A stretch of 64,000 nucleotides of DNA, taken from the NCBI GenBank assembly GCA_000004985.1, contig GG738918.1. The stretch is one strand, 5' to 3'. Source of the DNA: Naegleria gruberi (taxonomy: Eukaryota). A program made the translations under genes and the position numbers. Shown here one piece after another: positions 11,631-52,164 of this stretch (the first letter of the stretch is position 1; the number at the start of each line of letters is the position of its first letter). The notes beneath the pieces are model-generated. The model saw only the letters and a list, made by a program, of their open reading frames with translations, was not told where the DNA came from and searched no databases.

Positions 11631-13247
11631 TCAACATGTCTTTTCTTGGTAAAATGGCAAAGTCCAAAAACTGGTAGACTTTGTGTGGGATTTTTGAATT
11701 TCTTCATCATTTCTAATGGATAAATCTATTAGTTTGAATGCTCTTGAATCATGACTCAAGGCCACCAAAGCAATCTCTTTGTCTCTTCTCCAGCTTGGAT
11801 CGACATACATGAAAGGACAGCCATTATTGAGAGCTTTGATAATAATTTCACGATCCATTTTCCAAGAATTTTGGACAAACTTGAGAGCTATGCCATTTTG
11901 TCTGACAGCTGTCAATACAACTTCTCTTTGGTCCTTGAATTTAGAGTAAATATATTGTAAAGACGTTCCATCAGTTTGTACAGCATCCATCACAATGTCC
12001 AAGGTCTGAATCAAACTGGATTGAATTGAATTTGGGTTCTGCCCTATAGCCATTTTAACAATCTCAATATTTTCCCTAATTGATGCTGAGAAATAGTGTA
12101 ATAGAAGGCCATTTCTTTGGACAACCTGTCGAGCAATATCAACATCATCGTTCAATGGATAATCAATGTTTCTCATTACATTGGGGTTAATTTCTATCAA
12201 TTGGAGAATGAAATCCTTGTCTGTTCTCAAACTCGAATCAGCATATACAATATTGGATGGAGATTGTTTCACAGCTTCAATGAAAACTGTTTTGTCCTTA
12301 AGAAAGTTTCGAGCATATTGCAAATTGGTTGGATCTATTTTCAGTGCTTCAAGTACCATTTCCTGACTGATGATATTTTGTGGAATGCTATTTAATTTGA
12401 AAAAGCCTTCCTTGACAACCATAAGAGCTAGATCTGGATTTGCTTGCATTTCTGAAGATAATTTTTTGTAATCCAAGGGCCTTTTCTTAATCCAATACTT
12501 TAAAAACTCAATATTACTAATCGCATAAAGAATTGAAGAATTATTCCTCACAGCAGCACAAAGAATTTCAAAATCATTCATGAATTTTCCATCTGCACAT
12601 GTCAGAGCCGTTGCATTATGTCTTACAACTTTTAAAACCACGTCTCTATCAGATTTGATCGAATCATCAAATGCCATAAGTGATCGTAAGACCTTTCCTA
12701 AAATACAGGCAATCTCCTTATCTTTCCTCAATCCATCTGAAAGACATGATGAAATGGCCGAAAGAATATAATCACGAGTACAATATTTAGTGGCCACTTG
12801 CTTAATCCACTCCTTATCTGAGAATAAGTTGTGCTTTTTAAAATGATTTTCAATATATCTCGTATGCAATTCAAAGTGATCATTGCAATATCTAAACACA
12901 TGAAGAGCAACTTGCTTCTCGAATTGAATTTCTGGAAGGAAACGAATAATCTTCCAATCCATCAGTGCCAAAGAGATGAGAAATTGTCGATCCCTTTTCA
13001 AATCAATCAATTGCTCTGAAAATACCAATTCTCGTAAGCATTCGGGATTTGTTTGTACCATCATACGAATTTCTACCTTCCTCCGATAGGAAATATCAGA
13101 GATTTTGCAAAAAAGCCTCTCGGATAGATAGTCAGCATCGAGAATACAACAACATCTCCCATTACCATTTGAAAAAGTATGGAATTTTTTCTTTAAATTT
13201 TGAAAGATCTCAAATTTTAATATTGTAAAATTATTATTTTCAATCAT
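11631..13247 (-). CDS. DUF4116-type repeat protein
   Basis: 538 aa of repeated roughly 35-aa modules of the form 'DREVVLTAVRQNGIALKFV...DREIIIKAL' and 'DKDFILQLIEINPNVMRNI'. The same repeat type occurs inside the kinase gene at 58066..61119. Confidence 0.55.
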   Translation of the reverse strand: MIENNNFTILKFEIFQNLKKKFHTFSNGNGRCCCILDADYLSERLFCKISDISYRRKVEIRMMVQTNPECLRELVFSEQLIDLKRDRQFLISLALMDWKIIRFLPEIQFEKQVALHVFRYCNDHFELHTRYIENHFKKHNLFSDKEWIKQVATKYCTRDYILSAISSCLSDGLRKDKEIACILGKVLRSLMAFDDSIKSDRDVVLKVVRHNATALTCADGKFMNDFEILCAAVRNNSSILYAISNIEFLKYWIKKRPLDYKKLSSEMQANPDLALMVVKEGFFKLNSIPQNIISQEMVLEALKIDPTNLQYARNFLKDKTVFIEAVKQSPSNIVYADSSLRTDKDFILQLIEINPNVMRNIDYPLNDDVDIARQVVQRNGLLLHYFSASIRENIEIVKMAIGQNPNSIQSSLIQTLDIVMDAVQTDGTSLQYIYSKFKDQREVVLTAVRQNGIALKFVQNSWKMDREIIIKALNNGCPFMYVDPSWRRDKEIALVALSHDSRAFKLIDLSIRNDEEIQKSHTKSTSFWTLPFYQEKTC

Positions 13248-14436: not shown

Positions 14437-14689
14437 TGTGGCACACGCAACAGTTTATTTGTCTATTGTAAATTATTACCCTTCTTGTCCTATATATTAC
14501 CCAACTCCAAAGCGCCAATTTCTCATACCACCTGTCATCCTTCCTTAATCAGCTCATTTCAGCTCCCGTAACTACCTACAACTCCTTCAAAACATGTTGA
14601 AAACCTTTAGGAGTTTGCAATCTACTCCGTTCACCATAAATTCACGTTGAGAAAATTTGTGAATTGAAAAAAAAACAAAAAATTAAAAG

Positions 14690-16147
14690 ATGAAAGTCTC
14701 ATTGTTACTTGTTGCTGTCATCTTTGCCATGATGATGATGGCCATGAACATTCATGCCGAAAAGACCTTTGAAATTCCTTTGAGAAAGAGAGCCTACGAT
14801 GATGCTCGTGCTGCCTCTGTCAAACTCTCCAAGATGAGAAGCATTCAAACACAAAACAAACTTCGTTCCTTGTTGTACTCTGCCACACGATTGGCCACCA
14901 CAAAGCCATCCCTCAAGGTTGGTGCCACTCCAATTGTTCCATTGAAGGACTATGATGATGTCGAATATTATGGAGAAATTACCATTGGTACTCCTGCTCA
15001 AACTTTCAAAGTTGTTTTTGATACTGGAAGCTCCAACTTGTGGGTTCCTAGTGTTGCCTGTAAGGATTTGAGTTGTGTTAGACATGCTAGATATAATCAT
15101 ACCAAGTCTTCTACCTATGTTCCAAATGGACAATCATTCAATATTACTTATGGTACTGGTGCTGTTAAGGGTGTAAGTTTTTTTGAATTGGATGATGAAT
15201 TTATTAATTATTATTATTATAATTATTATTATTGAAAATTAATTATATTGAAATGCATAATGTTTAAATTAATTTATATAATATTGTATACAATATATTC
15301 GGAATATTAGATTTTGTCAAGTGATACCGTTGTTGTTGGTGGATTGGCTATTAAGGGTCAAGTTTTTGGTGAAACTACCAATGAATATACTGATACTTTC
15401 TTGAATGCCAAGATTGATGGTATTTGTGGATTTGTAAGTATTTAATCTTTCTTTTATCCTTAATATTAATCTAATAATATTAATATTAATATTCTAATTA
15501 ATTAATTCAACAATTTATTATCGGAATAATTTAAATAGGCTTTCCCAAATATTGCTGTTGATGGTGTTACTCCAGTTTTCAACAACTTGATGAAGCAACG
15601 TCTCGTTGATAAGAACATTTTCTCCTTCTACATGTCTAAGAAGGCTGGAAGTGGTGCTTCTGCAATGATTTTGGGTGGAATCAATTCTAAATATTATACT
15701 GGTTCTTTTAGCTATGTTCCATTGATTCAACATAATTATTGGAGTATTGCTTTGGATGATATTGCAATGAATGGACAAGGACAAAGTTTGTGTGGATTTG
15801 GATGTATGGCCATTGTTGATACTGGTACTAGTTTGATTGCTGGAACACCAGATGTTATGCAACCAATTATTAATCAACTTAATGTTGCTGAAGATTGTTC
15901 TAATATTGATTCTAATCCAAATGTTTCATTTGTCATTGGTGGAAAGCAATATCTTTTGACTCCAAGAGACTATGTCATTAAGATTACCTCTCAAGGACAA
16001 ACTCAATGTTTCCCAGGTTTCCAAACTATGGATATGGGTACTAATGGATTCGTCATCCTTGGTGATGTTTTCATCTCCACTTATTACACTGTCTTTGATT
16101 ATGAAGGTTCTAGAGTTGGATTTGCCAAGTCAAATCAAAACCTTTAA
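14690..16147 (+). CDS. Cathepsin-D-like aspartic protease (pepsin family A1), secreted
   Basis: Three exons, about 14690..15172, 15311..15433 and 15539..16147, with GTAAGT donors. There is a signal peptide. Both catalytic motifs are present: [14 protein letters not shown] and [12 protein letters not shown]. The introns are AT-rich and contain ATT/AAT repeats. Confidence 0.85.
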
Positions 16148-16197
16148 ATTAAAAGATTAATATTTCACAATAATTTCGTATTCATTATTAGAATCTT

Positions 16198-18369
16198 CTA
16201 CTTTCTCTGTTGACAATATCTGAACCAAGTGTCATTTATGACCATATCTCGCACAAAGGTTTCCAATTTATCCAAGGCATCGTATCTTCCCAAACCATTC
16301 TCAATTTCCACTTTTGATTGTTGCAAAACTTGTCCTGAAATATTTAAATGATTATCTCCACTAGGATCAATGAATTGTTTGAGAACTTGCTGTTGTTTCT
16401 CGACACGATCTTGTGCATTGGGAATTCTTCTGTACTGCTCAACAGTTTCCAAGAAGAGAAAGTTTTCCACTGATCTTTCCTTTTCGCACTGCTTTTTAAA
16501 TTCCTGTCTCAGTTGAGTATTGTTGAACATTTTATCAAATTCCATGATGAGCTTGATAGATTCGAGAAGTTGTTGATTTTGTTGTTTCTTTTCTTTCAAT
16601 TTCTTTTCCTCACTCAAATCTTTACATACGAGAAGATAGGTATCTCGTAAAGATTCACATTCTGACTTTTCACTGTTTGGAAATTGAATTAATTTGGCAG
16701 AAATCTTGACTGGTATCTTTTCACTTGTTGGTTTGGTGAGATGTGTTTCCCATGAGTCTCTTGAGGATTGTACCAATTGATTAATCTTGGATAATAGCTC
16801 AGATTCTTGTGAAAATTCCTTCAAATATCTAGAAATGGAACCAAGATCTTTTTGGGAATATCTGGTTTTGTTAAAAAAGGCAGTGTTGGCCATTGTTACA
16901 TTTGCTGTTTTTCTATCCACTGCCAATACCATATCTGAAATACTGTTCAGTAGAATTCTTGTTTTTTGCTCTTCCAAAGATGCCTTTTCCAGCAATTGTT
17001 CTAACAAGTTTCCTCTCTTGGCTATTTGTTCACTCGAAGCAGCCACCACTCTCAACATGGTATTAATTCTCTGAGTGAGTGTTGAAATTTCTGTAATCCC
17101 CTTCACTGGAATTGTAGAATCTGCCAAATTTTCAGTATTTTTCATAATTTTCCTCAAATGGTAACCTAAATTCACAAGTGGAGTCACAACAATTACTTCA
17201 TTCAAGACGAAAATAATCAGTGATGACAAAATAACAACCAAACAAGTAAATCCATACGACCAACCAAAACTCTGAAGTCCCAATTCTCTTACAGAACGAG
17301 AGAAATCAGTTCTCAATACGAAAGAAGGTTGTCCATAAATATCCTGATAGGTTTGATAAGTAATAATTCGTTCTCCTGTGGAGGATGAATCATTTCCAAA
17401 GCAAATTCTTTGATTCTTTGCACTTTCGGCTACATTTCCCATTCGAATAAGTGTTGGGTCTGTATTTTTCCATTCACTAATGATGCTGCTTGAATTAGGA
17501 TAAATGTATGGCTTGGATTTGATTTGGTTCCACACAGCAGTGAATTCTGAATCCAATTCCTTACCAGATTGCAAATTATACATTGTAATACACACTTGAG
17601 CTCTATTCGAAACCTGACTAACATAAACTGAGCGAATATACCGAGCCCACATCATAATTCCAGGTGTATCCGTAAATCCACAACCACTACACTGCACAGG
17701 AGCTGCCATTACCAAAAACAAAGTTCCATCTTTCAATGTCCAATATCCAATATTCATAGTCGAAAGTATCTGAATGTTTTCCATTAGAAAGGAGGGTAAT
17801 TGATACATTTCTGTTGGCATTGGAACAGCCATTCTACTTTCAAAATCATATCCCACTTTTCCTGCAACGGTTCCATTCAGAAAATAGTATCCAATAAAGT
17901 TGGCACCTGTTAATTCTTCAACGTGGTCTATATTTCCATACGAAACGTTTAGTCTCTTGTTCATTTGGTCTACAGAATAAGTTTTCATGAGGTAATATGA
18001 AGAATCCTATCAATTTTCAGAAAGTAGACATTCCATAGAATAATTACATTTCATCACCATGCGAAATATTCCATTAAATATTTTTAAATATTAACAATTT
18101 ACAATATTAAATATTTACAAAATATTATATAACATCAAAATACTTACCCAATTAGAATAAGTCAACAGAATATCCATCTGATTCTTGAAATCATCCATAA
18201 TAGCCCTCGTCACTCTTGTAGTAGTTTCCGATATATCACTTCTCTCAGCATATTCGAAACTCGAAAGCAAAACTCCCAACAAAACAGCCATAAACAATGT
18301 CATTACCACCAGAAACAAAACAGCCAACACGATAACATTCTTAACTCTCAAACTGCAAACATCTTTCAT
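16198..18369 (-). CDS. Receptor-like RGS protein, paralog 1. Domain order: N-terminal TM, extracellular sensor domain, second TM, coiled coil, PAS, then a C-terminal RGS domain
   Basis: Two exons, about 18148..18369 and 16198..18006. The intron lies after ...LLTYSNW, with donor RC acttac at 18142-18147. TM helices are VIVLAVLFLVVMTLFMAVLLGVLL and LVVILSSLIIFVLNEVIVV. A PAS-like segment reads LNSISDMVLAVDRKTANVTMANTAFFNKTRYSQKDL. The RGS domain contains ENFLFLETVEQYRRI. Confidence 0.65.
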
Positions 18370-18759
18370 TTTTTTCTTCTTATTTCAAACAACTGTCAAA
18401 CTGTCAACAACTTAATACTCTAAAAAAGAGCTATTTTGACAGAGAGAAGATGTGATTGAGGGAACTTTTGTATCAATGCCTTCTGTATATAAAAATTGGT
18501 ATCCAGTAAGGTCAGCACTTAGCTAATTGAGAAACTCGTGTTCATTTTCAATTTCTTATTCGAAAGTGACATTTGTTAACTTCGATGGATTGTGTTAGAC
18601 TTGCCGCATTACTTTGAATACTTTCCTACTAGGTGCTGGAAAGGTCTTTTGTTGTTGTAACCAGTTCGATAATAAAGCAGCCATTCCTGTCATCAACTGC
18701 CTAAAATGTCAGATGCCATGAAATTGAGAATCCTGCTTGTTGATATATAGCAAGAAAAA

Positions 18760-21023
18760 ATGTCAACAGATGTAGAGTTGCAAACAGCAGATAGTGAAAA
18801 GAATCTGGTGGGTGATTCGTTTGAAAATAAAGACTATTCGAAACAACAACATGTTCACGAGGGAAATGAAATTGTGATGACCAATGTTTTGGAGGAAACT
18901 ACTTCGAGTGGTGGAATGGTTGACCTCACCGATCAACAATTACCCAAATTCGAAGAGCTGGAATCGACATCTATCAGCGATCGAGGTTCTTTCGTCAACA
19001 TTCGAACAATTTCCTATTCGATTCAAATCGTTACCAATTTCATCATGTTACTCATCGTGGCAGGAATTCTCTTCTCGATATTCTTTACTGGTTTCCAACA
19101 ATTGGAAGAGCACGTAACGACTGAGGCCAATTTACGAATCCAACGAGCAATTTATGATGATTTTAAAAATGCTCTTGCCTTGTTGGCTTCGTTTGGAAAT
19201 TGGGTAAGTTTCGTTGATGAAATATTCGAAAGTTAATTGGAGAATAGTTGGATTTTTATAATGTGATGGATGCTGCGTATAGTGATGGATATAAAACCTT
19301 CTTGGATTGGGTGGATATTAATTATCCGTATGGAATGAGTAAGTAGTTTCGAATATGTTGGGTTGACTAGATTATTTTAATAGTGAGAGATGCAATTAAA
19401 TCGAATTTTGCATTAATTTACTTTAAGAATGGAACACTGGCTGCTGCAAAAGGCTTCAATCTAGAAACAGGAGATATTCTAGAGACTCCTGCTGAGCTAG
19501 CCAACTTGGGTTCTGACAATCCACTGAGAAAGGATATGGACAAAAGCACAACCAGAGTAAATGGATACCTCCTTACTTCCAAATATGGTGCTCTCCTCGT
19601 TTCTGCCTATCCAATCCACTTCAGCCCTCTAAAAAACAATCCACCAAATGGAATTCTCATTTTTGCAAGAATTCAAACTGAACAAGTGACCTCTTCCATT
19701 GCATCCAGAGCTCAAATGTGCATCACCCAATTCAGTGTCAATGATGCAGCACTCGATTCAGTTAGAAAACGTATGAAACTCGATAAACCAACTATCATTA
19801 ATGGATACGACATGAATTGGGAGAATAATCAAGCTTTTGCCTATGAAGAAATTGATTTGAGATATTTGAGTGGAAGAGTTTGTGATTCTGTGAGTGTTGG
19901 ATTGGAAGCAAAGGGTAGAGTAGCAACATTTCAATTGTATGCAGATATTTATGGAAATCCTGCTGTGGTTTTGAGAGCTGACACTGAAAGATTTATTCTA
20001 AATTTGGGAATTAATGCTTTTGTGATTGCTGTTTGTTTGTTGCTTGCGATTATGATTATTCTTGGCATTGCTGTCATTTTATTTACTGAAGTTGGTATTA
20101 TTAGAGGAATTTTACAATTGACTGATCGTGTCACTAAGATTTATGAAACAAGTGACATTTCTAATAGAGTTTCTATGAAAGGAAATGATGAGATTGCAAA
20201 AATTGGTTCCAATGTAGATCAAATCTTGACAATTATCGAAAATTCTCAAGTTCAATTGAAGCAGAAACAAGACGAAATGAGACAACTCTTGCAAAGAATT
20301 TCATTAGAAGAATACAAGACAAAATCAATCATGAATAGCTTACCAAATTCTGTAATCATGGTCGATAAGACAAATGGTGAAGTGGTTGGTTCAAATGAAC
20401 CATTCTATGAATGCACAGGATACTCTGAAAGTATGATCAAAGTTGGAAACTTGTCAGTTGCCAAATTATTCAACAAGCCAAGCACAGATCAATTAATGGA
20501 TGAATTTAAAGAATTGACCTTGAATTCAGGATCGAAAGCAATGAGTATGAGCACAGTTAATGGAATGATTATTCCAGTAATTATCTCAGTACAAGATGCC
20601 AAATTCTATAAAAGGAATAAGGTAGTATCTGCTTTTGTAATTTCCATTCAAGATAAGAGAAAAGATTTGGAATTGGTTAAGGAGGTTGAATTGGATGAGG
20701 AGAAAGTTAGAGAAATTCAACTCTTAATTGAATTTGAGAGAATGATTAAGAATCCAGATAGTCGAGACGAATTTATACGAAAGTGCAATGAAAATGGAAA
20801 GAGATTAACAATGCTATTTGTAGAAGTTAAGAATTTGATGGCAGGACTCAATTCTACCAATTTCCAATATGTATGGGAAAGTTATTGTCAAGTTGAAGAA
20901 TCAATTTCTAATTTCCCAGAGTTTAAATCAGCAAAATTGGAAAAGGATCTTTCTAATCAATTAAATTTGATGGAAATGAATTTGAAGAGTGCCATTATTC
21001 GAAACTATTATAATAATAAATAG
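18760..21023 (+). CDS. Receptor-like RGS protein, paralog 2, with the same sensor-TM-PAS architecture and a more divergent RGS-like C-terminus
   Basis: Three exons, about 18760..19203, 19248..19338 and 19384..21023, with GTAAGT donors. TM helices are IMLLIVAGILFSIFFTG and FVIAVCLLLAIMIILGIAVILF. A PAS-like segment reads IMNSLPNSVIMVDKTNGEVVGSNEPFYECTGYSESM. It aligns with paralog 1, e.g. YADIYGNPAVVLRADTERF versus YQDIYGQPSFVLRTDFSRS. Confidence 0.6.
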
Positions 21024-22535: not shown

Positions 22536-22608
22536 GCCCCGCTAGCTCAGTCGGTAGAGCGTTGGACTTTTAATCCAACGGTCGTGGGTTCGAGCCCCAC
22601 GTGGGGCG
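22536..22608 (+). tRNA. tRNA-Lys (anticodon UUU)
   Basis: GCCCCGCTAGCTCAGTCGGTAGAGCGTTGGACTTTTAATCCAACGGTCGTGGGTTCGAGCCCCACGTGGGGCG folds as a cloverleaf. It has a 7-bp acceptor stem, the D-loop AGTCGGTA, the anticodon loop CTTTTAA, and GGTTCGAGCC as the T-arm. Confidence 0.9.
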
Positions 22609-42722: not shown

Positions 42723-42806
42723 TCCGATGAGACGGAATCGAACCGCCGACCACAGGATAACAATTACAACTACAGTCCCATGCTCTACCAGCTGAGCTAT
42801 CATCGG
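42723..42806 (-). tRNA. tRNA-Tyr (anticodon GUA) with a short intron 3' of the anticodon
   Basis: The reverse complement reads CCGATGATAGCTCAGCTGGTAGAGCATGGGACTGTAG[ttgtaattgttat]CCTGTGGTCGGCGGTTCGATTCCGTCTCATCGGA. It has the eukaryotic tRNA-Tyr acceptor and T-arm, and the intron sits at the canonical 37/38 position. Confidence 0.85.
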
Positions 42807-46828: not shown

Positions 46829-49800
46829 ATGTTCATACTTGTGTATTTTCAAACTCTACCAACATCAAAAAAACCTTTCAATCTCATTTCAATGATGAAG
46901 GTTCTCTCACCCTTACAACTAATTTCAATCATTAGCTGTTTCGTCCTGTTTCTATTCATCACAACCAACGCTCTAATAAATCCCTCAAATCCATCTTCTG
47001 ATACAACAACATGGGATCTGGACAATGAAATTTGGTTTGCTCAATCCGCACCACTAACAGGTCCTTCCAAGAGGTAAGTATTGGAATTTCATACAAATTT
47101 CATTAATTGGAAATTTCCCGCCCAATTTTAAATTCAAATATTTAAAAAAAATATTAACATCGTGATGACCACATAAAAACAACATGTTCTTGTTTGGTGG
47201 TTCATAGACTTGGAATTGAAATGCGGGATGGTATTTTGACTGCCTTTAATGAATTCAATGCACTTGGAGGTGTTTTTGGAGGTAAAAAGTTGAAACTCTT
47301 AACTCTAGATGATGCCTACGAACCAACCAACACAAAGGTGAATACCAATTTGCTTCTCTATAATATTACTCCTCCGAATACGTCAACATTGAATCAGGCT
47401 ATTTTCAATAATAGTATCGCATTGGATGAGGTAAAAGGAAGAAAATACTTTGGCTTGATTGGTTTTGTTGGTACTCCAACAGTGCAGAATGTTTTTACTG
47501 ATGTGCTGAGTCAGGTTTGGCCTCTGATTGGATCATTCACTGGAGTTGGTTGGCTTCGAACACCTTTCTATCCAAATATTATTAATATTCGTGCTTCGTA
47601 TGATGACGAAACTGCTGCTATGGTTGAGTGGCTGGTAAATGTCAAATTGATAAGAAGGATTAGTATCATGTATCAGAATGATGCTTTTGGTAATGCTGGC
47701 TTGTCAGGAATTAATAGATCATTGGTGAAGAGATTGAACATTTCGCTCTGTTCTAGTGGTACCTTCCCAAGAAATACTCTGCAGGTTGAGGATGCTTTCA
47801 ATACAATTGGTAAATGCAATCCAGAGGCAATAGTTTTGATTGGAACCTATGCTCCTCTTTCGAAATATATAAGATTGGTTAAGGATGTAGCCTTCTCCCC
47901 TTATAATTCAACACTTGGATACAGCAAGGCCAATCAGATTACTTTCCTTACTGTGAGTTTTGTTGGATCATCAGCATTGACAGAAGATTTATCCTCCTAT
48001 CAACCTCCTTCTCTTGCCTATGGAAAGACCTATTATACGGACAATGTTGTAATTTCTCAAGTGGTTCCAAGTCCAATGGATACCAGCTATCCCATTGTTT
48101 CATCCTATCAACGTTCTAGAAAGGAGTATGCTAAAAATTTGGGACTTGATCCATCACTTGTGTCGTTTACTTTTATTGAGCTAGAGGGTTATTTAGTAGG
48201 AAAACTTGTGTTTACTGTGCTCAAAAACATGATAGGATCATTAACAAGGTCTAACTTTATTGCTAGTATATATTTCGACTTTACATCTGGTGTTAGTGAT
48301 GTAACAAATGCTGGTGGTTATTTCAATTTTGAATCGGTTCAAGTTGGTAGATACAAATATTGCAATGCTGTCAATTTGTACGATCATTTCCTTTCACCTA
48401 GCAATCAAACAGTAGTATCTGGTTCATGTTCTGATAATTGTAATCAAGGACTTAAAATTATTTACCTCAGTAATATAGAGCTCAAGAACAATACTAACAT
48501 TAGATTTAATATTTTCAGGGACTTTTCGTGGTATGACACCCAAAAATGTATTTCAGACACTGCTCAAATTCAAAAACAAATTATAATAGGTCAATCTATT
48601 TTATCAACCTCTTTGAGAGATCAATTTATTACTGTGGGTATTAATGCTGCTCTTTCAAAAAGAAATAGTAATTATACAAGAAATATTGAACTCAAAACAC
48701 TATATCACGATGATTCAGCATCAATGTTGAAAAATGTTGTAGAACTGAAAACTCTCCATGAAAGTGTTGCATTTGTAGGGGTTTCTGCTGAGAGTATTAA
48801 TTTGGACAGTTCAAATACCAATTCAACCATAGATATTAGAGGATATTCAGAATTTTCAAATATTCCTTTATTTGGGGTGCGTTCAACAAATAGTATGGTA
48901 TTGAGAAATACATTTGTTTCATCTTTTATTCATGTATTTCCATCAATAATGGATCAATTGGGTACCGTAATAGATTATAGCATGAAAAATGGAGAGAATA
49001 GAATAAGTATCGTCTATAGCAGTTCAAATTCAAATTCAGTCGAGGTTAGACAATTGTTAAAGTCTATTCTGGATTCGATTGGTATAGAGACCGATAGCGA
49101 GGTTGATGCCACTGAAACAATTTCATTAGACTCAATTATTAATCAACTCAGTTCTAACACTGCTAACCCTCACTCCATCTTTCTTACTTTGAGTAATCCA
49201 GACCAAATTCTCAGTATCATCTCACAAATCAAAAAGACCTATTCGAATTCTAGCCCACTATTTAGAAAGGGATTATCTGTTTATTTGATCAATTCACTAT
49301 TTGATTCGAGTGTTGAAGCTATTTTTTCAACACCACTTTCTTTGATTGTCGATGAAAACTTGAGTGTAAAGTATGTGAGCCATCTTCCAGGATCCTACAA
49401 CTCTACTCTTCAAGTAATAACAGATTTTGAAAATTCAATGGATACATATTTTCCTTCAATTAATTATAGAAATAATACTGCTTATCTTGAGGGCTATATT
49501 ATTGGAGCAATGATCTCTGCATTTATCGATAGTAGTGGAGGTAATTTAGACGCTAAAGGGCTATTGAACTACATGTATACTGTACAGCAAGTAACTTCTG
49601 CTGGTGTAAGCTTTGGAAAGCTGTCTGTTGGATCCAGCCCTTGTTCATTAGGATTAAGAACAAACTATATCTATGCTTACAATCAAAAATCACAGACTTT
49701 TTCTGAATTCAATATTCGAAACTATGATATGAATGGGTGTGGTCTTGTTAAATATAAGAATAGCAAAAAGCGTGCTGCTCCTACAATAGATATTTCCTCA

Positions 49801-52164
49801 TTAGAACAACCTTTGGTGTTTGCCAGATTAATACCTTTCTCTGGTGATGAATCATTGAGTTCTTCAAAACTAAGTTTACTAAATGACGTAATCGATGCAG
49901 ATGACTACTCGAAAGGACTTTCATCTTACATAAACGTATACAATACCAAAACTACTAACCAGAAAATTCAAATAAGAACAGAATATTTCGGGTTTACAGA
50001 TAGTAGATGGAGTCTTGAAACTAAGGTGAAAAATATGATAACTAGACAGAAGGTATTTGCATTTGTAACTGGTTTTTCTAGTGATGAAGATTTTGCGACA
50101 ATTGACAATATCAAACAAATTCTTACAACATATGATACGCCAATGCTTACAACTTCCAATTCTTTAGAATTGCGAAAACCATTCTCCAAATATTTTATCA
50201 ATATGAAATCCTCTGTGTTAGATGAAGTTGCATCTCAAATTTCTTATTTCAAGAATTATGGATCTATTGCAATTATTTATCACAATATTCCTTACTGGAC
50301 CAACCAATCAATTCCATTAATAGCAGAGTATTTGGAATATAATAGTATTTCAATATCTTTAATACAAGGCTTTAGTGGCAGCAGTGATTTTAGTTCATTG
50401 GGAGTTAAACTTCAAGAAGGAAATATTCAATCAATTGTTTTGATATCTGGGTCATCAATGTCAGCTTCATTCATATCTTCCTTGATTATGTATCAAACAA
50501 CATATACGCCTAATATTGGAATTCTATCGGAAGCATATAATAATGACTTTGTTTCAAAGACCTTCACTGTTAACAATTACAAGTCTGCTCTATTTGCTCA
50601 TAACTTCCTCTATTTGTCCACAATTACCTTTGCTCCAAAGATTTACAGCTCTGATATTTGTTCATTGTCAACCAGTTCTCTACATACTGACAAACAGAAT
50701 TCTTTTATCTCACTATTCATGTCTAACTACAATTACAATAGTACAGCAACACACATGACATTGGAAGGTTACTCTACAGGATTTTTCATTGAAACACTCC
50801 TTAATAGAATTTACCAAGAAATGGGAATTACGAAACTGAGTACTGATGATCTATTTTCAGGAATTTATTCTGCTCAAACATTTGATATTTCTGGATTGAA
50901 TACTTTTGGACCATTTGGGTTGGAATGCTCCAGTCAATCAAGTCAATTAACAACAAATCAAACTTCTTCTTCTTGTAATCAGAAAAGTACAACAACTTGT
51001 GATTGCAACCAAGCCCCAAGAAAAGTCTACTTGAGCAGAGTCAATATCGTTCCAACAGAAAATTATTACACTTTCACTGATATTGATTATGCATTCGATT
51101 TCAGCAGTTCATGTGGTGTGAGTGTTGTCAAACCTGTGCTATCGACTACTGCAATTGTTTTGATTTCATTGGCTGGGTTCTTTGTCATTCTGCTCGTTAT
51201 TATTGCCATATCAATCGCTTATGTTTGTATTTCAAGATCAGAAAGTAATACCAAGAATGCACCTAAAACTGGTAACATTTGCTGCTGCTTTACAGATATT
51301 CAGAACTCGACCGTTTTATGGGAAAAGTGTGAAAAGGGAATGAGAGAAGGTCTCAAATTGCACAATGATGTTCTGCGTAATCAACTCAACTTATTCAAAG
51401 GTTTTGAGGTCAAGACTCAAGGAGACTGTTTCTATGTCGTATTCAAGGATCCACTGGATGGAATAGATTGGGCAATGAGCTGTCAACACGAATTAATGTC
51501 CATTGCTTGGCCATCCGAACTATTACAAATGTATGATTGTAGAACAGAGTTTAATAATGAAACCAAGGAGATAGTTTGGAATGGAATTAGAGTTAGAATG
51601 GGCTTGCATTTTGGTTATGCAGAGAAGATCTTTGACAAGGTAGTGAACAGACCAGACTACTTTGGTAATACTATCAATGCAGCTGCTAGAATTGAGGCTT
51701 CTACCCAAGGTGGTCAAGTTTTAATTAGTGAAGATATGTTCTCAGAGTTGTGGAAAATTCATGGAACTAATTTATTCAAATCCATCACTTTAAAGGAAGA
51801 TAATCAAGCAACTTATTTGGAAACCATTAGTCCTTCATTTAAAAGTGTGAATGGTATAGGAGAAAGCAAAAAATCCAAGGATTTCCAGGCAATATTCAGC
51901 ACAAAAGGAAGATCTATCAAATATAGTGAAAATACAGAATCAACTAAATCAGAAGATAGAAAGTTGAAATACCATGCAAACGATCTTGGAGAATTCAAGC
52001 TTAAAGGATTGCAAGGAATGATAAGATTATTTGAAATCAAATCGGATAAAATATTGGAGAGAAAATACAGTGAAAATTTGAGAAATACTGAAGTAACAAA
52101 ATTAGATATGTTAAAACAAGGTTCCCAACTAAAGTCAACTCGTACCATCCTTCCTCTAAACTAA
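46829..52164 (+). CDS. Receptor-type class III nucleotidyl cyclase. Domain order: signal peptide, large ectodomain of about 1250 aa with tandem periplasmic-binding-protein/ANF-receptor-like (VFT) modules, single TM, cyclase catalytic domain, C-terminal tail
   Basis: Two exons, about 46829..47073 and 47205..52164, with a GTAAGT donor at 47074 and an acceptor at ttcatag|A. ATG 46892 is an alternative start. The signal peptide is MMKVLSPLQLISIISCFVLFLFITTNA. The PBP-like start is RLGIEMRDGILTAFNEFNALGGVFGGKKLKLLTLDDAYEP. The TM is AIVLISLAGFFVILLVIIAISIAYVCI. The cyclase domain reads ICCCFTDIQNSTVLW...VKTQGDCFYVVF...RVRMGLHFGYAE...GNTINAAARIEASTQGGQVLISEDMF. No kinase-homology domain lies between the TM and the cyclase. 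Confidence 0.75.

Follow-up and report, generated by a model that had tools for sequence, protein, structure and literature searches.

A head-to-head pair of predicted two-transmembrane CHASE4–PAS receptors with an intact and a degenerate RGS domain in Naegleria gruberi

The two genes considered here, A and B, lie back to back at positions 16198-21023 of a 64,000-nucleotide stretch of Naegleria gruberi DNA (assembly GCA_000004985.1, contig GG738918.1), referred to below as the window. They form an anciently duplicated, divergent pair and come from a receptor-like RGS family with two transmembrane segments (TMs), known to date only from Heterolobosea. Each product carries, in order, TM1, an ectodomain, TM2, a HAMP-like linker, a coiled coil, a PAS domain and a C-terminal domain of RGS type, as the original prediction for this locus, made from the DNA letters and a list of their reading frames, had proposed. 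The reading favoured here, and a reasonably likely one, is that A acts as a ligand-regulated receptor with GTPase-activating protein (GAP) activity, a 2-TM analogue of the seven-transmembrane (7TM) RGS proteins, and that B is a GAP-dead paralogue kept as its partner or as a separate sensor.

The window has a G+C content of about 34% and its genes are spliced and eukaryotic. Exon models for both genes were assembled by hand from the window sequence, and the span 16198-21023 marks the exact limits of the two coding sequences, with stop codons at 16198-16200 (A) and 21021-21023 (B). The deposited N. gruberi proteins P0001 and P0003 match models A and B, respectively, at 100% identity from end to end. 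Both genes have been public in databases since 2010, A under the name 'RGS domain-containing protein' and B as 'histidine kinase'. The features of the pair are as follows.

16198..18369, minus strand: gene A (NAEGRDRAFT_74859, XP_002670222.1, UniProt D2W0H3), two exons, 676 aa
18369-18148, minus strand: exon 1 of A
18147-18007, minus strand: intron of A, 141 nt, GT..AG, phase 0
18006-16198, minus strand: exon 2 of A
18280..18336, minus strand: TM1 of A, aa 12-30, by hydropathy (3.21)
17242..18279 (intron included), minus strand: ectodomain of A, aa 31-329, CHASE4
17185..17241, minus strand: TM2 of A, aa 330-348, by hydropathy
17044..17184, minus strand: HAMP-like linker of A, aa ~349-395 (HAMP 16.7 bits, cut-off 25)
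16594..17043, minus strand: coiled-coil connector and PAS of A, aa ~396-545 (PAS_8 17.4 bits, cut-off 21.8)
16210..16539, minus strand: RGS domain of A, aa 564-673 (PF00615, 40.2 bits against a cut-off of 23.9, E 5e-10)
18370..18759, no strand: intergenic spacer from ATG to ATG, 390 bp, candidate bidirectional promoter
18760..21023, plus strand: gene B (XP_002670173.1, UniProt D2W0H4), three exons, 724 aa
18760-19203, 19248-19338 and 19384-21023, plus strand: exons of B, with introns of 44 and 45 nt, canonical GT..AG
19027..19083, plus strand: TM1 of B, aa 90-108, by hydropathy, after an N-terminal extension of ~89 aa
19084..20021 (both introns included), plus strand: ectodomain of B, aa 109-391, CHASE4 match at aa 131-292
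20022..20078, plus strand: TM2 of B, aa 392-410, by hydropathy
20079..20663, plus strand: HAMP-like linker, coiled coil and PAS of B, aa ~411-605, collinear with A and placed by the family profile
20709..21020, plus strand: degenerate RGS remnant of B, aa ~621-724, the first ~39 columns matching the family RGS profile

The two proteins are true paralogues, as originally proposed: BLASTP aligns them at 26% identity over 592 aa (E 5e-56), collinear nearly throughout. Searching the whole 64-kb window by tblastn turned up no other paralogue. The first exons of both genes end at the same conserved residues, ...NW, in phase 0 (A ...DDFKNQMDILLTYSNW, B ...DDFKNALALLASFGNW), a correspondence that had already been pointed out; gene B has an additional exon of 91 nt that was absent from that earlier description.

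The sensor half is the same in both proteins. Each has two hydrophobic segments, as expected from the original prediction; the ectodomain that they enclose had been put at roughly 250 aa and measures ~283-299 aa. Between the two TMs, CHASE4 (PF05228) is matched above its Pfam cut-off of 26.2 bits in A (35.4 bits) and in B (30.3 bits). An AlphaFold2 model of the A ectodomain (aa 33-328, from a 19-sequence family alignment; predicted local distance difference test, pLDDT, 88.7; predicted template-modelling score 0.84) has a long helix at its N-terminus and two α/β modules after it. Its top Foldseek matches are the Vibrio parahaemolyticus histidine kinase 3LID and the GGDEF protein 2P7J (E 2e-8), followed by TlpA, PctA, LuxQ, DctB and Tlp3. 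The choice earlier left between CHASE, Cache and dCache can be settled as CHASE4 by sequence and double-PDC or dCache-like by fold, the fold being that of the A model. K2, R8 and K10 precede TM1 of A and suggest a cytosolic N-terminus. The cytosolic ends of the TM helices are flanked by basic residues, and a pair of ectodomain cysteines (Cys213/Cys276 in A, Cys291/Cys345 in B) is kept in 52 of 74 family sequences; both features agree with an ectodomain that faces outside. Four N-X-S/T sites lie in the ectodomain of A.

The relay from TM2 to the C-terminal domain is best seen at the level of the family. In B the HAMP model (PF00672) reaches 12.8 bits against a cut-off of 25 and PAS_9 21-22 bits against 27. 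Across the 74 family members HAMP is matched in 31 (E <= 1e-3) and PAS models (PF00989, PF13426, PF13188) in 16-21, and some siblings exceed the PAS cut-off. A profile of the linker region built from 16 relatives matches the Af1503 HAMP (E 3e-4) and the PAS domains of PpsR and 3MJQ (E 1e-4 to 3e-4), each at the expected position, so that the HAMP and PAS assignments of the original prediction are supported for the family. The best of the listed matches of B outside Heterolobosea are bacterial CHASE4-HAMP-PAS-HisKA-HATPase kinases (E 3e-16, 52-75% of B covered). By sequence, the sensor-transmitter module is homologous, from one end to the other, to its counterpart in bacterial CHASE4 histidine kinases and diguanylate cyclases: TM-CHASE4-TM-HAMP-PAS corresponds over its full length to kinases and GGDEF/EAL proteins such as P0004, P0005, P0157 and P0158, with 3LID and 2P7J as ectodomain structures. 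The output differs, being HisKA/HATPase or GGDEF/EAL in the bacterial proteins and an RGS box here, with no kinase domain in A or B. HisKA and HATPase_c gave no match in B at E <= 1; since B has no kinase domain, its public name is wrong, and the misnaming probably stems from the similarity of its sensor module to the bacterial kinases.

At the C-terminus the two proteins part, A with a canonical RGS domain and B with a degenerate one, as had been anticipated. The A domain (40.2 bits against 23.9) is aligned by phmmer with RGS5, RGS9 and RGS6. The residues that contact the Gα switches in the RGS4-Gαi1 complex (1AGR) we take to be RGS4 S85, E87, N88, N128, D163 and R167. Aligned to these six positions in A are S586, E588, N589, N629, D666 and R670, and all six are kept. 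Among the 74 family representatives, five of the six contact columns are conserved in 49-58 of the ~64-66 aligned sequences; the S85 column holds 33 Ser and 9 Thr among 64. A profile of 20 family RGS domains searched against the PDB matches the GAP-active RGS boxes of the R4, R7, RZ and R12 classes at E 7e-15 to 4e-9 (RGS4/1AGR at 1.5e-12), and the non-GAP RGS-homology (RH) domains of GRKs at only ~1e-6. A accordingly has a bona fide RGS box, with every feature of a functional GAP domain that can be read from sequence.

In B no RGS domain is matched by Pfam even at E <= 1, nor by any RGS entry of the PDB at E <= 10. With hhalign, B alone aligns to the family RGS profile over the first 39 columns only (87% probability, E 4e-6). 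Its orthologue P0009, from a metagenome contig described below, has a full-length domain with a precomputed Pfam RGS match, and when B and P0009 are combined in one profile, its match to the family RGS profile reaches 99.7% probability (E 3e-26). The C-terminal domain of B therefore descends from an RGS domain, a homology that is traceable through the orthologue. B has a substitution at every one of the six Gα contacts (K, L, T, D, N and N in the alignment), which answers in the negative the earlier question of whether the second paralogue keeps the catalytic Asn. The contact residues are lost in P0009 as well (…VTSK… for …S.EN… and …IVIS… for …LNIS…); the loss is common to both proteins and is therefore old and long tolerated. 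Beyond it, N. gruberi B is more eroded than its orthologue: its last ~64 aa cannot be aligned even with P0009, and its domain is ~20 aa shorter than that of A. No continuation of the RGS domain was found hidden in other reading frames or past the stop codon, as a frameshift or a missed intron would leave. An AlphaFold2 model of the segment (pLDDT 54-63) has SNX25, RGS22, SNX13, axin and RGS4 as its best structural matches, at this low confidence.

B is thus read as GAP-dead. The original proposal that an extracellular signal controls a GAP for Gα in both proteins remains plausible for A and is not supported for B; because B and its orthologue have lost all six contacts, the pair consists of one active-type gene and one pseudo-RGS rather than two GAP receptors. 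Four further family members, P0025 (N. gruberi NAEGRDRAFT_76151), P0042, P0050 and P0063, also lack the S.EN and LN(I/L)S motifs in the family alignment, so the GAP interface may have been lost more than once in the family.

The extent of that family was assessed with a profile search of 1.84 billion representative proteins. It returned 49 matches at E <= 1e-30, ~45 of them spanning the whole region from CHASE4 to RGS. All matches with a named organism are heterolobosean; several are N. gruberi paralogues, and the others come from N. fowleri, N. lovaniensis, Willaertia magna and Acrasis kona. The remainder are metagenome proteins, to which automatic annotation has often given a bacterial name, 'PAS domain S-box' or 'methyl-accepting chemotaxis' protein. 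Among the 74 representatives RGS is found in 60 and CHASE4 in 40; seven have a CHASE ectodomain instead and three a NIT ectodomain, and four end in an adenylate/guanylate cyclase. A and B accordingly belong to a modular receptor family in which a bacterial-type ectodomain is followed, usually through a HAMP domain, by PAS and then RGS.

The arrangement of the two genes is conserved in one other genome. As the original prediction stated, A and B stand head-to-head around 18370..18759, with exactly 390 bp between the start codons. The exhaustive profile search recovered an A-orthologue, P0002 (42% identity), and the B-orthologue P0009 (44% identical to B over 502 aa, 28% to A), and both lie, again head-to-head, on a single 62.8-kb Joint Genome Institute (JGI) metagenome contig, L001. 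The rebuilt A-orthologue has its one intron in the same place, after …LTYSNW, and the rebuilt B-orthologue shares the position and phase of both its introns with B (…SFGNW / NDFNNVM…YPYEM / MRDAV…). A neighbour-joining (NJ) tree groups A with its orthologue and B with its orthologue at 100% bootstrap each. A tblastx comparison of the 21.7-kb L001 locus with the 64-kb window found nothing in common but the pair. Since the pair is kept while its flanks are non-syntenic, the unit stayed linked as its surroundings changed.

The spacer in L001 measures 61 bp from ATG to ATG (9608-9668), against 390 bp in N. gruberi; either the promoter there is extremely compact or the annotated start of one gene is wrong. 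In the B-orthologue ~45 aa precede TM1, compared with ~89 in B, and an extension of ~45 residues in N. gruberi is absent from the orthologue. The conserved head-to-head layout suggests that A and B are expressed together. Within the N. gruberi spacer the heptamer CTGTCAA occurs three times in 50 bp (18393-18442), twice in direct orientation 8 bp apart (18393 and 18401) and once on the reverse strand (18436). Related strings of the form TGTCA(A/T)CAAC lie near the ATG of B (18687-18698 and 18757-18768), and AAAAAA precedes both start codons. Across the window CTGTCAA is found 20 times where 13.9 are expected, which is no enrichment, and only its local clustering in the spacer stands out; it is therefore not claimed as a regulatory element but noted as a possible shared candidate. 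The 61-bp L001 spacer has no clear counterpart of the cluster.

A working model for A can be set against what is known of G-protein signalling in a relative. In N. fowleri some Gα subunits are self-activating, and GAP activity towards the Gα subunits of this species, the self-activating ones included, has been demonstrated for the RGS domains of its 7TM-RGS proteins (Bosch, Jeck and Siderovski 2022, PMC9283941). Where Gα activates itself, GTP hydrolysis becomes the regulated step, and a ligand-regulated GAP is the most economical reading of A. In this model the membrane-distal PDC module of A would take up a small ligand from outside the cell. Within a dimer, TM2, HAMP and the coiled coil would carry the signal on to PAS, and the access of the C-terminal RGS box to membrane-bound Gα-GTP would be altered, so that an A-type receptor could switch G-protein signalling on or off without a G-protein-coupled receptor (GPCR). 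B, with sensor and transmitter whole and its RGS domain dead and partly eroded, would most likely serve as a non-catalytic partner that dimerises or competes with A, or else as a sensor whose output is of another, protein-binding kind. This role is proposed because the sensor of B is constrained, its GAP interface is gone and the divergent arrangement is conserved. A more specific and rather unlikely version makes A and B an obligate asymmetric heterodimeric receptor, produced from one conserved bidirectional promoter, whose two different CHASE4 ectodomains would sense two ligands, or one asymmetrically. Only one protomer would have a live RGS box, and the other, dead one would control whether the GAP domain beside it can reach a self-activating Gα. 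Were it correct, a bacterial-style HAMP/PAS transmembrane switch would be wired directly into the eukaryotic heterotrimeric G-protein cycle, and the 2-TM sensor-RGS proteins would form a GPCR-independent receptor class, so far only in Heterolobosea and including the pathogen N. fowleri.

Several observations weigh against the favoured reading of A and B. HAMP and PAS fall under their Pfam cut-offs in A and B individually, and we know of no ligand for any CHASE4 domain. The alignment behind the AlphaFold2 model of the B C-terminus is dominated by real RGS domains, which biases the model towards an RGS-like shape. Two scans of metagenome contigs, with A-lineage and B-lineage patterns, gave no further paired loci, so that conservation of the pair is documented by L001, one extra genome. 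The family members inspected in N. lovaniensis and Willaertia magna are single genes, and pairing is therefore no rule of the family. Within the subfamily A and B group as sisters in only 20 of 100 NJ bootstraps, and inertia alone can keep two genes together when the spacer between them is very short.

The strongest alternative, a possible though clearly less probable one, is that A and B are independent receptors whose adjacency is left over from an inverted tandem duplication, with no shared regulation and no A-B complex. B would then signal alone, through its PAS domain or through a remodelled C-terminal helical domain serving as a protein-binding, non-GAP module. RGS-homology domains without GAP activity are well known, and SNX25, RGS22, SNX13 and axin stand next to RGS4 among the best structural matches of the B model; identity between A and B is only 26%, they group as sisters in few of the NJ bootstraps and other members stand alone. 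Against independence, the arrangement and the exon structure persist at ~42-44% protein identity while all flanking genes differ, and 61 bp between start codons in L001 is hard to fit with two fully independent promoters. The B domain can be compared with the known non-catalytic RGS-homology domains (SNX13/SNX25, axin, GRK2, RGS22), differing from them in being shorter, in being modelled with low confidence and in a homology that only the orthologue makes traceable.

It is improbable that B is simply decaying towards a pseudogene without a function of its own. The branch of B is the longest in its clade, and its shortened, unalignable last ~64 aa and the low pLDDT of that segment point in this direction. 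The 724-aa reading frame is nevertheless intact over three exons with canonical GT..AG introns, both intron positions are kept in P0009, B and its orthologue agree at 44% identity (68% similarity over 502 aa) in their sensor, TM, HAMP and PAS regions, and the cysteine pair persists. The loss of contact residues, being common to both, has been tolerated for long. On these grounds B does not look like a pseudogene. Similarly improbable for A is a role of its RGS box without regulated GAP activity, in which it would bind active Gα and draw it to the receptor, serving as an anchor or an effector module in the manner of GRK2 or the RGS-RhoGEFs; RGS folds do serve in this way elsewhere, but A retains all six GAP-interface residues and the family profile prefers GAP-type boxes to GRK RH domains by the E-values given above. 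That the gene models are artefacts, with TM1 exons taken from other genes or chimeric predictions, is scarcely credible despite very short introns (44, 45 and 141 nt), as the models equal the deposited proteins, their exon boundaries and phases recur in L001, and the CHASE4 match begins in exon 1 and spans the splice junctions, giving independent support to the exon models. Adding the upstream exons lifts the score of this match from 21 to 35.4 bits in A and from 21.5 to 30.3 bits in B.

The direct route from receptor to RGS that was proposed for this locus is plausible for A and is not new in principle, since 7TM-RGS receptor-GAPs acting on self-activating Gα subunits are documented in plants and in N. 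fowleri (PMC9283941). The latter has 28 7TM-RGS proteins and 79 other, uncharacterised RGS proteins (PMC9283941), and N. gruberi has 229 RGS proteins with lineage-specific architectures (De Mendoza et al., PMC3971589). A and B resemble the 7TM-RGS proteins (AtRGS1 of Arabidopsis and the 28 of N. fowleri), probably their nearest counterparts in function, in being membrane receptors with a C-terminal cytosolic RGS box, in a host with self-activating Gα, and in the proposed logic by which an extracellular cue modulates GAP activity. They are not members of that family: they have two TMs instead of seven and no GPCR-like bundle, their ectodomain is a bacterial CHASE4 double-PDC, from which HAMP, coiled coil and PAS would pass the signal on in the manner of dimeric receptors of bacteria, and their genes come as a pair of active and dead type. 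Also comparable are the sibling architectures CHASE-PAS-RGS, NIT-PAS-RGS and CHASE4-HAMP-cyclase of Willaertia magna, Acrasis kona, N. gruberi and metagenomes, which share the cytosolic PAS-RGS cassette and the union of a bacterial-type ectodomain with a eukaryotic output. They differ in having CHASE or NIT as ectodomain, or Guanylate_cyc as output, and are not known as pairs.

No description of a CHASE4/HAMP/PAS-RGS architecture, of this locus or of its locus tag was found in the literature searched, and an earlier mention elsewhere is possible. To our knowledge, receptor-GAPs have so far been essentially the 7TM-RGS proteins of plants, Trichomonas and Naegleria. The locus would represent a second, apparently undescribed solution, in which a whole bacterial-type sensor-transmitter (CHASE4, HAMP, PAS) is fused to an RGS box, in a sizeable family, so far heterolobosean only, with interchangeable ectodomains (CHASE4, CHASE, NIT). 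Should the family function in the proposed way, signalling mechanics of the prokaryotic two-component style would be able to run the eukaryotic G-protein cycle without an intermediary. A concrete function would then be at hand for some of the ~80-230 uncharacterised RGS proteins of Naegleria, and the family would provide extracellular targets, unlike human ones, in N. fowleri. A conserved pair of one active and one dead member is also a natural system for asking how pseudo-enzymes persist beside active paralogues. Correction of the public 'histidine kinase' annotation of gene B is a by-product.

Further genes were noted in the window and on L001. On L001, ~3 kb downstream of the A-orthologue, a PAS-HisKA-HATPase_c gene is followed directly by a Response_reg gene (14569-16552), predicted to be a two-component pair of bacterial type on a eukaryotic contig. 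The interval up to the A-orthologue holds a histone H4-like gene and an Arf-family GTPase. In the window, the genes next to the pair code for an aspartyl protease, ORMDL, an SDR, a mitochondrial carrier and an FMN-binding protein; none of them is connected with G-protein signalling, and no Gα gene lies nearby. A 1656-aa open reading frame (ORF) at 47194-52164 (plus strand) combines two Peripla_BP_6 domains with an adenylate/guanylate cyclase catalytic domain. Its predicted product is a receptor with the same design logic as the CHASE4-RGS pair, a bacterial-type extracellular sensor joined to a eukaryotic output. The ORF at 58027-61119 (plus strand) has CNH/Vps39_1, DUF4116 and protein kinase domains and could be two genes, and seven DUF4116 repeats make up the matches of another at 11631-13247 (minus strand). 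Two tRNA genes were also located.

22536-22608, plus strand: tRNA-Lys(UUU)
42723-42806, minus strand: tRNA-Tyr(GUA), 84 nt, may contain an intron

At 61315-63693 (plus strand) lies a 792-aa ORF dense in EGF-like repeats, matched by teneurin- and Jagged-type models, and no RGS domain was found in it. EGF-like repeats also occur in the extracellular N-termini of several 7TM-RGS proteins of N. fowleri (Bosch et al. 2022, PMC9283941).

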